Below, in pieces: positions 10,362 to 53,700 of a DNA stretch of 64,000 nucleotides. Origin of the DNA: Verrucomicrobiota bacterium (GTDB lineage Bacteria; Verrucomicrobiota; Verrucomicrobiia; Limisphaerales; SIBE01). The notes beneath the pieces were generated by a model, which was given only the letters and a program-made list of their open reading frames with translations, had not been told where the DNA came from and ran no database searches. Each line of letters opens with the position of its first letter. The first letter of the stretch is position 1. The position numbers were made by a program, and so were the translations under genes. The DNA lies in assembly GCA_027623095.1 (NCBI GenBank), contig JAQBVM010000001.1, forward strand, positions 1,745 through 65,744. The letters run 5' to 3'.

Positions 10362-11362
10362 CTCAAGAGCGCTTCAAATTCCGCCATGTGAACGAGCTGA
10401 CCGGCTTGTTGGTGCTGGCCGTCTTCGCGCTGGTGGTGGCCGGTGTCCTTTACAGCGGCCAATCTCAGCGGTGGTTCGCGCAGAAATACGCCTTCGACGT
10501 GCTCCTGCCGGAAAGCGGAGCGTTCGGTTTGAGACGCGGCGACGAGGTGTTTATTGCCGGAGTTTCGGTTGGTCTGGTGGACGATATTCGGGTGGGCCAG
10601 GATCGCCGGATGAAGGCGCATGTGAAAGTCCGCGGTGACTTCGAACGGTTCGTGCGCCTCGATTCCACGGCGGCCATCAAAAAAGTTTTTGGCGTGGCGG
10701 GTGATTCCTTTGTTGAAATCACCGTTGGCCACGGCCAGCCGCTACCCGCGCACCACGCCGAAATCACCTGTCTTTCGGTGGAGGAATTGCCGGCCAAAAT
10801 GGAGAGAATGCTGGAAGAACTCCGGGGCGAACTGTTGCCTGTTGTAAAAAAAGCCGGCGCGACGCTCGACGCTTGGACCCAGCTCGGCACTGATCTGCAA
10901 TACACGCAAGGAGAATTAGACCGGCTTCTCGCCAGGCTCGACAACCTCGCCACCGGCGTCGAGCAAGGCAAAGGCACCGCCGGAAAGCTGCTCACGGACA
11001 CCGCTCTGGCGGACGAAGCGCAGCAACTTCTGGCACAAGCGAACGAAGCGATGCGCGGGTGGCAGGATGTGATGACCAACCTCGCCGCCGCGGTCATCAA
11101 TGTCCGGAATGGCACGGCTCGGCTGCCGGACATCTCCGAGGCGATCGCCAGTGAAACAAAGAACTTGCCCGGTCTCATCCAGCAAACCCAGACCGCGATG
11201 CGCGAAGTCGAGCGATTGGCGGAAGCGCTGCAACGACACTGGCTCCTCCGCAAATACGTGGATAAAACCGATCCGCCGCCCGGGTGGCCGCAACCCGCGG
11301 GCCAAAAACCCGAAACAAAGCCCCTCCGGGTGTTCCGTTCACCAAAGGGTTCGATGAGGTGA
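10358..11362 (+). CDS. MlaD/MCE-domain substrate-binding protein with long coiled-coil tail
   Basis: GTG at 10358 (GTGA overlap with the upstream stop) within track ORF 10103..11362. TM helix [21 protein letters not shown] core [21 protein letters not shown]. Confidence 0.75.
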
Positions 11363-33488: not shown

Positions 33489-33599
33489 GGACCGCGGGCT
33501 GTCCCAGCCCGCAGCGCTCGAAAAATATTCCTCGCATCGGAAACAAGCTGATGCGTCAATTTGTTCGGGATCGCTGCGGCTTGGTACAAGCCGCGGTCC
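33489..33599. repeat. Interspersed repeat element: 26-nt imperfect inverted arms (GGACCGCGGGCTGTCCCAGCCCGCAG ...) around a ~59-nt core
   Basis: Left arm 33489-33514, right arm 33574-33599 (21/26 complementary). The left arm plus ~45 nt of core recur at 53631-53700. Confidence 0.6.
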
Positions 33600-42693: not shown

Positions 42694-43146
42694 ATGCCGG
42701 AAAATTCCGACAAATCTCTCGAATTCTGGATTTGGGATGCAGCAAGTTCCATTCTCTGCGCAAAGGACGCGCCGAAATTCAAGGAGTTCATTCTCCCGCT
42801 CATCTTTACCAAGCGACTCTGCGACGTGTTCGATGACGAGATCAATCGCATCGCGCAGGAGGTCGGCACCCGGGGCATGGCGAACATGAACGTGATCATC
42901 CACGACATGGAGGGCGAGAATCAGATTGGCGACACGTTTCGCAATCCGAAATTCCGCCAGGGCAATCGCCTCCAAACCTTCGATCGCGTCGTGGCCAACC
43001 CCGTTTGGAACCAGACCGAGTTCAAGGAAAAGGATTACGAAGCCGACGAATACCGCCCGCTCGCCGAGATCCTTGAGGAGTTGGAGGAGATCAAGGAAGA
43101 GCCTGCCCAGACGGATGCGGTGTTGAAAAAGGTGTTGGAACGTATC
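42694..43146 (+). pseudogene. hsdM: Type I R-M methyltransferase HsdM, internally deleted
   Basis: N-domain LEFWIWDAASSILCAKDAPKFKEFILPLIFTKRLCDVFDDE joins directly to ANMNVIIHDMEGENQIGDTFRNPKF...FDRVVANPVWNQ (NPPW degraded to NPVW). The AdoMet-binding core between them is missing. The track ORF tail is read-through into a REP. Confidence 0.7.
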
Positions 43147-43217
43147 GGAGCGCGGACAGCTTTGTCAGCGCGAATCGAGAACGGCTCCCGACTCGCGGAC
43201 AAGGCTGTCCGCGCTCC
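43147..43217. repeat. REP doublet (REPIN-like) upstream of RAYT
   Basis: GGAGCGCGGACAGCTTTGTCAGCGCG (43147-43172) and GCGGACAAGGCTGTCCGCGCTCC (43195-43217). Each unit is itself an imperfect palindrome, and the outer 14 nt (GGAGCGCGGACAGC / GCTGTCCGCGCTCC) are perfectly complementary. Confidence 0.8.
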
Positions 43218-43232
43218 TCTCTCACGCACACC

Positions 43233-43970
43233 ATGAACACGAAACCCGCTCTTCAGGTTGTAGCCGAGAAACGCCAGTGGCATCATCAGCCCACGGCGGA
43301 AGAAAAAGCGCGGGGTTTTATGGGCTGGTATTCGCGCGGTTACCTGCCGCACTTTGACGCTCCCGGCACGTGGCAGTTCATCACCTACCGTCTCGCGGAT
43401 TCCATCCCCGCGGAACGGCGCCACGAATGGGCGGAAGCGATGAGGCTGGAAGATGACCGCGAGAAGTTTCGGCGGATGGAACTGGTGCTCGATCGCGGCT
43501 TCGGCACATGTTCTCTTCGTGAGCCGCGCATGGCGCAAATGGTGCAGGAAAACTTGTGGTTTCACGACGTCAAAGCGTATCGGTTGATGGCGTGGGTTAT
43601 CATGCCGAATCATTTGCACATTCTCGCCGAGATGTGGAAGCCGTTAGGCGTGGTGCTGAAGAATTGGAAATCCTACACGGGCACCGAGGCGAACAAGATT
43701 CTCGGTCATGTCGGCGACACGTTTTGGCAGGCCGATTACTTCGACCGCTACATTCGCGACCAGAAACTTTACCGAAAGGTGGTCCGTTACATTGAAAATA
43801 ATCCGGGCAAGGCTGGGCTGGTGCGCGAGCCGGCGCAGTGTCCGTGGAGCAGCGCGCCGTATCGCGGTCCCTACGGCTCGGACGAGTTGCCAAAGATCCC
43901 GAAGCATCGCGCGGAGGAGAGCGGACAGCCTTGTCCGCCCGAAACGAATGCGAAAAAGCCGTACGAATGA
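43233..43970 (+). CDS. REP-associated tyrosine transposase (RAYT; IS200/IS605-like Y1 HUH enzyme)
   Basis: 245 aa. YLPHFD, HUH motif VIMPNHLHIL, C-terminal YIRDQ...VRYIENNPGKAGLV with the catalytic-Tyr region. Flanked by REP hairpins, and the last ~15 codons are themselves a REP copy. Confidence 0.8.
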   Translation: MNTKPALQVVAEKRQWHHQPTAEEKARGFMGWYSRGYLPHFDAPGTWQFITYRLADSIPAERRHEWAEAMRLEDDREKFRRMELVLDRGFGTCSLREPRMAQMVQENLWFHDVKAYRLMAWVIMPNHLHILAEMWKPLGVVLKNWKSYTGTEANKILGHVGDTFWQADYFDRYIRDQKLYRKVVRYIENNPGKAGLVREPAQCPWSSAPYRGPYGSDELPKIPKHRAEESGQPCPPETNAKKPYE

Positions 43971-44070
43971 AGAAGGAGAAGGCCATCGCCCGCGCAACCG
44001 GAGCGCGGACAGCTCTGCCCGCGCATTTGGAAGAGGCGTCGCGTCGTGCGGACAAGGCTGTCCGCGCTCC
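43926..44070. repeat. Three REP units downstream of / overlapping the RAYT 3' end
   Basis: GGAGAGCGGACAGCCTTGTCCGCCC (43926-43950), GGAGCGCGGACAGCTCTGCCCGCGC (44000-44024), GCGGACAAGGCTGTCCGCGCTCC (44048-44070). The last is identical to 43195-43217. Confidence 0.8.
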
Positions 44071-44078
44071 GATAAACG

Positions 44079-44342
44079 ATGCCCGCACCCGGCGAACACA
44101 AAACCGTCCAGGCTCGCATCCTGAAATATGCGCATGAGATCCGCTGGACTTGCGTGCCGCGAGCCGAAGCTGAGGCGCGACGTGGCTTTGACCCGGACGG
44201 CGCGACGCTCGAGGATCGCGCGCGGACGGCGTCGCTTTACTTCGGGGATCTACTTCACGAGCGCGTTCTTGCCTTTAACCCGAAATACAAGGAAGCCGAA
44301 GGCGCGCTCGTTGGCGAACTCCAGCGGTTCAACGCGGACATC
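44079..44342 (+). pseudogene. hsdR: Type I restriction enzyme HsdR, N-terminal stub only
   Basis: EHKTVQARILKYAHEIRWTCVPRAEAEARRGFD...SLYFGDLLHERVLAFNPKY resembles the HsdR N-terminal region. No helicase motifs follow, and the frame stops at 44444. Confidence 0.6.
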
Positions 44343-44410
44343 GCCCTCAATCTCGAAGCCAAGGTGAAGGGCTTTTGCGCGGCGCCGTGGGTGCTGCGCT
44401 TACTCAAGGA

Positions 44411-44578
44411 TTTCATCCGGTTCGCGTTCCATTCCAGTTTCTGATCCGGCACACGAATCGCCACTGTGCCGAGCAGGATGGCTTCGGTCATCGGGCGGCT
44501 CTGGGAAAAGTGCGACGCGGTCTTTTCGCTGCCGAAGCAGGGTCCGCAAAGACGTGGTAATGGTTTCGGCCCGAAAGT
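44411..44578 (-). pseudogene. Second Gfo/Idh/MocA-type oxidoreductase C-terminal remnant, opposite strand
   Basis: My minus-strand translation: ...CFGSEKTASHFSQSRPMTEAILLGTVAIRVPDQKLEWNANRMK..., the same family block as 42430-42642. Low nucleotide identity to that copy, so a paralogue rather than a recent duplicate. Confidence 0.45.
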
Positions 44579-53580: not shown

Positions 53581-53630
53581 CAGCATCCGCGCCCCGCATC
53601 TCCGAGTTGTTGGACGAGGAGCGCGGGGTT

Positions 53631-53700
53631 GGACCGCGGGCTGTCCCAGCCCACAGCACTTGCAATACACCCCTCGCATCAGACACGAGTTCGTGCATAG
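53631..53700. repeat. Second copy of the GGACCGCGGGCTGTCCCAGCCC repeat family (single arm plus core)
   Basis: GGACCGCGGGCTGTCCCAGCCCACAG, then 15 nt, then CCTCGCATC..., collinear with 33489-33555. I did not find a matching right arm. Confidence 0.55.

Follow-up and report, generated by a model that had tools for sequence, protein, structure and literature searches.

What kind of gene is bracketed by five copies of one short hairpin, and what ties the two together? The question arises in a stretch of 64,000 nucleotides (nt) from a Verrucomicrobiota bacterium (NCBI GenBank assembly GCA_027623095.1, contig JAQBVM010000001.1, positions 1,745 to 65,744 of the forward strand), the whole of which we call the window and number from its own first letter. 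Here an open reading frame (ORF) for a protein of 245 amino acids (aa) lies among imperfect palindromes, and the original prediction, made from the sequence alone, read the ORF as a REP-associated tyrosine transposase (RAYT) and the palindromes as its repetitive extragenic palindromic (REP) elements. We followed up that reading in the window, in homologs of the protein and in other genomes, and conclude that the region is very probably a REPtron, that is, a chromosomally fixed RAYT gene with copies of its cognate REP on either side.

Results

The hairpin unit and its arrangement

The repeated unit is 23 nt long and reads GGAG-CGCGGACA-GCYT-TGTCCGCG (consensus GGAGCGCGGACAGCCTTGTCCGC; as a search string, GGAGCGCGGACAGCYTTGTCCGC), and five copies of it lie inside 924 nt around the ORF. 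Each consists of a 5' GGAG(C) head followed by a G+C-rich stem of 7-9 bp and a 4-nt loop, and two units joined as a doublet usually span about 68-75 nt. A search for the stem pattern GCGGACA-N4-TGTCCGC, allowing at most 2 mismatches, returned 7 matches in the 64 kb, where 0.48 were expected and none of 100 shuffled sequences reached 7; five of the seven fall at 43152-44065 and the remaining two, with 2 mismatches each, at 11090 and 49787. All five copies that the original prediction had placed around the ORF were thus located, and the two that it had called identical are so, although its third unit, put at 43926-43950, lies about 10 nt further left. The features are as follows:

43233-43970, forward strand: gene for a RAYT, a Y1 HUH nuclease of the TnpA-REP type, 245 aa
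43147-43169, forward strand: unit A, 2 mismatches to the consensus
43195-43217, reverse complement: unit B, 0 mismatches, identical to unit E
43916-43938, forward strand: unit C, 1 mismatch, inside the 3' end of the RAYT ORF
44000-44022, forward strand: unit D, 3 mismatches, the most degenerate of the five
44048-44070, reverse complement: unit E, 0 mismatches, identical to unit B
43146-43217, no strand: upstream REP doublet A+B, 72 nt, resembling a REPIN (REP doublet forming a hairpin), tail-to-tail with GGAG heads outward and a 25-nt spacer
43999-44070, no strand: downstream REP doublet D+E, 72 nt, GGAG heads outward

The upstream doublet ends 15 nt 5' of the RAYT start codon. The two doublets repeat each other in direct orientation with 78% identity, which comes from the units, since the spacers share no similarity. 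Folded as single-stranded DNA, each doublet forms one long hairpin, of -32.0 kcal/mol for A+B (z = -6.8) and -27.8 kcal/mol for D+E (z = -3.3), while units C and E are 88% complementary over 32 nt and can pair with each other. Residues 228-236 of the protein (EESGQPCPP) are the translation of unit C, and 9 further codons then complete the ORF. The claim that a REP makes up the last 15 or so codons therefore stands as to the presence of a REP inside the end of the ORF and falls short in its count, because unit C together with its 3' flank supplies the last 18. A scan for terminators and promoters called none on the REPs, which have no T tract, and Rfam returned only far-sub-threshold matches to eukaryotic miRNA-precursor models, of the kind that generic long hairpins give.

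A class-2 Y1 HUH protein

Both motifs on which the prediction of a Y1/HUH enzyme had rested, VIMPNHLHIL and YIENNP, are found in the ORF. The HUH motif is H127-L-H129, the catalytic tyrosine is Y186, and around it stands Y186-I-E-N-N190-P191. This Y-x3-NP pattern is the signature of class 2 (TnpA-REP), as opposed to the Y-x3-Q of IS200 (PMC6006769). In alignments of 19 and of 63 sequences, H127, H129, Y186 and N190 are invariant, as are the P39-H40-x-D42 motif and R175; P191 is invariant among the 19 and at least 90% conserved among the 63. Selection on the gene has been purifying (ratio of nonsynonymous to synonymous substitution rates, dN/dS, 0.09-0.15 against nine homologs, at dS of 0.7-2.5), and the window copy deviates at 2 of 82 highly conserved columns, which is the family median. 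The conserved core stops at about residue 225, and the tail beyond it is encoded by the REP and modelled with low confidence.

Searches with the whole protein place it near the E. coli enzyme. The Pfam family Y1_Tnp is matched in part only (24.4 bits against a cut-off of 23, profile positions 39-121), Pfam finds no helix-turn-helix (HTH) domain, and the IS200 model NF033573 does not match at E <= 0.01. A sequence search of the PDB returned a single match, 4ER8, the E. coli TnpA-REP bound to a REP hairpin (E = 2.7e-6). The AlphaFold model (pLDDT 83, pTM 0.76) likewise has 4ER8 as its top Foldseek match, at E = 2.2e-8 and a TM score of 0.66 on the target, ahead of IS608 TnpA (1.6e-4) and of the ISDra2 transposase. 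In the sequence alignment with 4ER8, F164-W165-Q166...D171-R172...R175 of the window protein (segment FWQADYFDRYIR) falls on IWQPRFWEHAIR, a region in which W94, Q95, E100, H101 and R104 of the E. coli protein are implicated in recognition of the GTAG head; a D/R replacement like that seen here is reported for subclasses 2.5 and 2.7 (PMC6006769). NCBI holds an identical protein, annotated 'MAG: transposase [Verrucomicrobia bacterium]', MAG standing for metagenome-assembled genome.

These results support assigning the protein to the class-2 (TnpA-REP-type) Y1 HUH enzymes rather than to ordinary IS200 TnpA. The same choice had been made in the original prediction, and it is borne out by the Y-x3-NP motif and the missing NF033573 match; no long intact ORF adjoins the gene, the ORFs and domain matches beside it being remnants of hsdM and hsdR, although tnpB was not searched for as such.

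Most homologs carry flanking hairpins

Loci of homologs were gathered from exact look-ups and a metagenome scan. Wherever the contig includes the flank concerned, all homologs at 64% identity or more have the same layout: a head-outward doublet ending 6-16 nt 5' of the start codon, a forward unit at or just past the 3' end, and one or more reverse-complement units or doublets downstream. In six of these proteins (P0002, P0007, P0010, P0020, P0022 and P0023) the REP encodes the C-terminal peptide ERGQPCPRE. When the orthologous upstream doublets of 10 lineages are aligned, the units are nearly invariant and the spacers and flanks variable, over a divergence at which the adjoining RAYT gene is near synonymous saturation.

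Homologs at 35-56% identity mostly lack the window's unit, and most have hairpins of their own on both sides, which were first detected as the longest sequence common to the upstream and downstream flanks. Their hairpins carry a GGAGC head (sometimes GGGGC) and a 7-bp stem beginning GCGG, with inner stems of ACA/TGT, ACG/CGT, GCG/CGC, CCA/TGG, CCG/CGG or GCT/AGC, so that full stems read, for example, GCGGGCG/CGCCCGC or GCGGCCA/TGGCCGC; GAGGGCG/CGCCCTC also occurs. Covariation was assessed on twelve 22-nt units, because MAFFT misplaced the loop gap when units with 3-nt and 4-nt loops were mixed; among these twelve, collected with a perfect-stem filter, both sides change in 3 of 7 stem pairs and none is broken.

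As to mobility of the gene itself, no close homolog was found on plasmids, and P0060, one and the same protein on 16 contigs, has a single fixed context in the four places shown. Two distant homologs are arranged differently (L145:5850-6700 and L155:900-2600), being flanked not by inverted doublets but by same-orientation arrays of 3-4 GGGGC- or GGAGC-headed hairpins at a period of 30-42 nt.

The hairpin in other genomes

Species-representative genomes scanned with GGAGMGCGGACAGCYYTGYC yielded at least 120 stretches from at least 57 assemblies, mostly MAGs of Verrucomicrobia; the window's own contig is absent from the 120. The counts that follow are among the matches listed, and REP counts per genome are lower bounds. 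The window's REP is present in 119 of the 120 stretches, from at least 56 assemblies, with at least 219 units at no more than 4 mismatches. Conservation begins abruptly at the first G of GGAG, and each of the four head positions is kept in 214-217 of the 219 units. Adjacent units are paired with heads outward in 89 of 90 cases, at a modal start-to-start spacing of 44-52 nt, and doublets account for 86 of 130 independent sites. A single assembly has up to 8 stretches and 15 units. By contrast with this spread, a RAYT homolog stands in just one of the 120 REP-bearing stretches (L044). Counting only sites beyond the one through which a stretch was sampled, relatives carry about one REP site per 77 kb. 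In a crude test based on ORFs, 41% of units fall within long open frames, against 76% of random positions.

A minority subtype of the REP has the loop CGCCGA (GGAGCGCGGACCGCCGAGTCCGC; L036, L042, L044, L074, L023, L100, L120 and L082). It is always paired with the main subtype, in 9 of 79 doublets of a sample selected on the main subtype, and these heterodimers recall the Y/Z heterodimers of the bacterial interspersed mosaic elements (BIMEs) of E. coli.

About 15 of the 57 REP-bearing assemblies are labelled as something other than Verrucomicrobia, among them 'binchicken' Bifidobacteriaceae bins, Anaerolineae and Bradymonadales (L008, L012, L023, L025, L029, L031-L033, L035, L038, L054, L056, L060, L061, L063, L064, L067, L076, L077, L088, L093, L094, L110 and L117). 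An Acidobacteriota-labelled MAG has 15 units and a 93-nt spacer family of its own. These labels could reflect mis-binning or mislabelling, or else horizontal spread, and domain content is uninformative on the point. One of these loci (L067:1403-5338) has a gyrA ORF of 1312 aa in which LAGLIDADG and Hom_end domains lie between topoisomerase segments, probably an intein.

A restriction-modification operon in decay

On both sides the window's REPtron is met by the remains of a type I restriction-modification (R-M) operon:

42694-43236, forward strand: hsdM remnant, a collapsed type I methylase gene of 180 codons in which HsdM_N (35 bits) and N6_Mtase (43 bits) are matched as fragments only
44079-44444, forward strand: hsdR remnant, an N-terminal fragment of the gene for the type I restriction R subunit, 121 codons

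The ORF of the hsdM remnant reads through the upstream doublet and has its stop within an ATGA shared with the RAYT start codon, and the downstream doublet ends 8 nt 5' of the start codon of the hsdR remnant. The 121-aa hsdR fragment gave nothing in Pfam, in the PDB sequence search or in tblastn against plasmids; it was identified by a search of a large database, with 567 homologs; among these the longer proteins, annotated as type I restriction enzyme R subunit, have PF04313 (HSDR_N).

Related loci retain differing amounts of the operon. The closest homolog with context, P0002 (82% identity), lies directly after an intact hsdM-rhuM-hsdS, with an ATGA start/stop overlap. In L131 (2849-3661) about 250 hsdM codons are kept and run straight into the doublet, and in L124-126 and L121 about 75-115 nt of the hsdM 5' region are left. 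The 5' end of the window's hsdM remnant is homologous to the sequence 5' of the RAYT gene in L121, L124-126 and L131, while the first 90 nt or so of hsdR are conserved 3' of the REPtron in L126, L137 and L132. Because these flanks are shared at a dS of about 0.8, the gene appears to have stayed in place since those lineages diverged. The REPtron already occupied the slot between hsdS and hsdR in the sub-clade's ancestor. It has outlasted its R-M operon, which decayed by deletions around it. The decay is graded, from the intact hsdM-rhuM-hsdS through the 250-codon hsdM and the 180-codon patchwork to the 75-115 nt, and some of the deletions end right at the outer edge of a REP doublet.

The link with R-M genes is nevertheless not general, because homologs at 54-83% identity stand in other contexts; a general link was considered and rejected, those at 54-59% having no R-M neighbours. 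A Y1_Tnp gene 5' of hsdR in L183-185 was likewise rejected as a relative, since it is of the IS200 type with Y-x3-Q and shows no tblastn similarity; in L183:3326-3778 this unrelated transposase of 150 aa shares the cargo slot 5' of hsdR with AbiEi and DUF3800 genes.

The ATGA overlap recurs at window 43233-43236, L122:602 and L131:3658, where the ORF that reads through the doublet is an hsdM remnant, hsdS or a truncated hsdM. It may possibly reflect translational coupling, a claim that we do not make, as G+C-rich open frames confound it: the frame ending in ATGA is often open far upstream, and in L121 it is antisense to a called gene. The 120 best hsdR-fragment homologs of the 567 are all short (90-212 aa), several of them on long contigs; in L183-185 hsdR is split in two (128 aa + 851 aa), the fragment being its first ORF, and in L186 the fragment is a remnant next to a HepT/MNT pair. 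It seems that hsdR is often split or truncated in these communities.

Weighing the explanations

The reading of the pair as RAYT and REP, put forward in the original prediction, has gained from several sides: 4ER8 is the best match, the Y-x3-NP motif is present, homologs at 64% identity or more repeat the layout, and the hairpin is dispersed in relatives. The window itself holds one RAYT copy. By homology with E. coli TnpA-REP and IS608 TnpA, we infer that the enzyme of this REPtron would bind the folded hairpin on transiently single-stranded DNA and read its unpaired head through the conserved FWQ..YFDRYIR segment. It would then cleave through Y186, with a metal held by H127 and H129, and rejoin the strand; in this way REP units or doublets could be excised, inserted or copied elsewhere while the RAYT gene stayed put.

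Several observations pull in the other direction. The head is GGAG, whereas characterised RAYT-REP pairs have GT[AG]G. The 23-nt unit has no copy in the window's other 63 kb, with about 0.5 expected by chance, which is uninformative given that relatives carry only about one site per 77 kb. The NCBIfam equivalog model NF047646 (REP_Tyr_transpos) gives the window protein 71.4 bits, under its cut-off of 80; close homologs (P0002, P0009, P0050 and P0083) reach 81-84 bits, so that this family is borderline for the model. P0060 and P0083 have no flanking hairpin or only one, and the perfect-stem filter makes the 100% pairing in the covariation set partly a product of how the units were collected. 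Finally, the spacers of the doublets are held at about 22-29 nt in length and are mostly unrelated in sequence; replication of the doublet as one unit is hence not evident, save in genome-specific sub-families (JAYVJN, DASUGI, DASTLJ). Among the matches listed, spacers related within one genome were seen only in these three and in JAHCLO.

Three other explanations deserve consideration. The gene might be an accessory or cargo gene of the type I R-M operon, for example one for defence-related DNA processing, and the hairpins regulatory or terminator structures internal to the operon. Its position invites the thought: P0002 directly follows hsdM-rhuM-hsdS with an ATGA overlap, hsdM remnants lie upstream in the window, L121, L124-126 and L131 and hsdR remnants downstream in the window, L126, L132 and L137, and the slot between hsdS and hsdR elsewhere holds AbiEi, DUF3800 or a HepT/MNT pair. 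Yet at least 5 lineages have lost or truncated their R-M genes with the RAYT gene still under purifying selection, homologs at 54-83% identity live in contexts free of R-M genes, and the hairpins, which are scattered at great distance from operons of this type, have no T tract and include no terminator-like site called by the scan, all of which makes a role as operon cargo quite unlikely. A second idea is that of an autonomous IS200/IS605-like insertion sequence (IS). The gene would then transpose as one unit with its subterminal hairpins, and deletion derivatives of it, or miniature inverted-repeat transposable elements (MITEs), would account for the dispersed doublets. The Y1 HUH fold and the hairpins at both ends are what such an element would have, the gene does occur in unrelated neighbourhoods (L123, L135, L146 and L176) as against the R-M context, and doublets could in principle come from internal deletion. 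The protein, however, has Y-x3-NP, matches TnpA-REP best and does not match NF033573; beside the gene stand remnants of hsdM and hsdR and no long intact ORF; the same hsdM/hsdR 5' flanks recur in the window, L121, L124-126, L131 and L137 despite a dS of about 0.8; and the gene is in only one of the 120 REP-bearing stretches listed, with no plasmid copies found. We regard an autonomous IS as distinctly unlikely.

Still less probable, in our judgement, is that the hairpins are host elements, such as mRNA-stabilising or protein-binding palindromes, spread or kept independently of the RAYT, the gene merely sitting among them or attracting them. REPs have documented host roles in other bacteria (PMC6006769), and their depletion from long open frames (41% vs 76%) fits an extragenic regulatory element. 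Against this, the stem changes with the clade of the protein while the head and the head-recognition segment remain constant, and the fixed placement relative to start and stop codons across a dS of about 1 is unexpected from chance association. A REPtron thus remains the explanation that we favour.

A wider reading can be built upon it, which we hold as a joint proposition with a little less than even confidence. To the GTAG and CGTC tags, GGAG(C) hairpins would add a third, so far uncatalogued super-family of REPs. It would have co-diversified with a clade of RAYTs of about 233 aa found widely in Verrucomicrobiota and in further phyla of soil and freshwater, the heads and the head-reading segment of the protein staying fixed and the stems changing in compensation from one protein clade to another. 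Within the window's clade the 23-nt unit would be essentially identical across dozens of synonymously saturated species, and the REPtron would be a long-lived resident of a type I R-M operon whose doublet-abutting deletion end-points hint at REP- or RAYT-associated deletion.

Other repeats in the window

A second family of hairpin doublets, headed by GGACCGCGG instead of GGAGCGCGG, occurs at 33489-33599 and 53631-53696. The former is a head-outward doublet of 111 nt (GGACCGCGGGCTGTCCCAGCCCGC ... GCGGCTTGGTACAAGCCGCGGTCC); the latter is a partial copy with 79% identity to it, and before it, at 53618, stands an isolated GGAGCGCGG. Neither copy has a RAYT-like gene beside it. At 1967-2026 there is a tandem repeat of the 12-nt sequence GACTGGTGGGGT, in about 5 copies, which if coding would give a repeat unit of 4 residues.

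Discussion

Much of what we describe falls within a known frame: REPtrons, REPs that overlap the 3' end of the gene, peptides encoded by intragenic REPs and verrucomicrobial REPs have all been reported, and the present case leaves the current picture of what RAYTs are unchanged. The novelty that the original prediction implied for genomes of the Planctomycetes-Verrucomicrobia-Chlamydiae (PVC) group was overstated, since a 2013 paper had already described REPs and REPtrons in the verrucomicrobium Opitutus terrae (PMC3733652). New here are a head that reads GGAG and not GT[AG]G, the depth at which the unit is conserved, and the location inside a type I R-M operon in decay. Experimental knowledge of RAYT-REP pairs comes almost wholly from Gammaproteobacteria, and the window offers a protein and its exact 23-nt hairpin from a poorly studied phylum. 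The related proteins with compensatory stem differences make a natural series for studying how head and stem are read, and the near-identity of the unit at saturated synonymous divergence is a clean case of constraint imposed by a protein on a non-coding repeat. In practical terms, the REP accounts for contig breaks in these MAGs and for the spurious C-terminal peptides (ERGQPCPRE, ADKAVRAP) of their annotations.

One counterpart is the REPtron of E. coli (Ton-Hoang et al. 2012, as cited in PMC6006769; Messing et al. 2012, PMC3479197), whose TnpA-REP (RAYT, YafM; 4ER8) is likewise a Y1 HUH protein with Y-x3-NP, encoded by a gene that inverted REP pairs bracket. In both systems the REP is an unpaired 4-nt head on a G+C-rich hairpin (an imperfect one in E. 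coli), the protein has a W-Q...R head-recognition segment, REP copies far outnumber the gene (for the window's REP, among the stretches listed from other genomes), and two loop subtypes are able to form heterodimers. The window protein differs in being about 70 residues longer and only 20% identical over the aligned fold, with an N-terminal extension of about 45 residues that includes the invariant PHxD, and with longer helices before the HUH strand. Its REP differs as well, in the head (GGAG(C) against GTAG) and in the stem, which is short and perfect at 7-9 bp where that of E. coli is long and bulged. The density of about one site per 77 kb that we estimate for the window's REP is lower than that of E. 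coli, where there is about one REP per 8 kb.

Also comparable are the GTAG-tagged REPs and REPtrons of O. terrae, of the same phylum, and of Planctomycetes (Di Nocera et al. 2013, PMC3733652). There, as here, REP monomers and dimers flank RAYTs, a '3'ov' arrangement overlaps the 3' end of the gene, intragenic REPs add short peptides, and tail-to-tail dimers tend to have variable spacers. The O. terrae units differ from the window's in being GTAG- or GTGG-headed and in encoding peptides such as VGPALAAG. Neither the paper nor its supplements contain a GGAGCG-headed unit, and GGAG is not among the head variants published there (GYAG, GYRG, GTRG, GTMG, GTGG); the heads of the RAYT classes are catalogued as GT[AG]G (PMC6006769), and the sequence of the window's unit had no match in the searchable literature.

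Another long class-2 Y1 protein with moderately abundant flanking repeats is TIRYT, or TnpA-Y1 subclass 2.1 (Di Nocera et al. 2013; Quentin et al. 2018, PMC6006769), which is common outside Gammaproteobacteria (PMC6006769). Members of that subclass have a C-terminal HTH/DnaA_C-like extension, a terminal inverted repeat (TIR) motif GGGG[AT][CG]A[CG] and no hairpin REPs beside their genes (PMC6006769). The window protein, by contrast, has no C-terminal HTH and its flanking repeats are GGAGCGCGG-headed hairpins; lacking both that domain and a GGGGWSAS TIR, it falls outside TIRYT/subclass 2.1.

The REPIN-RAYT systems of Pseudomonas and Enterobacteria (Bertels and Rainey 2011, PMC3116915; Bertels et al. 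2017, PMC5581495) bring the comparison back to doublets. Spacers of the window's type are mostly unconserved between copies, unlike those of REPINs. The population of window-type REPs appears to number tens to perhaps 100-150 units per genome, nearer to the flanking-16-mer counts of RAYT Groups 1/4/5 (12-31) than to those of Groups 2/3 (57-140) (PMC5581495). In those systems, as in the window, inverted doublets are able to form one long hairpin, and a RAYT gene under purifying selection stands flanked by its own doublets; the gene there is single and vertically inherited, as the window's probably is.

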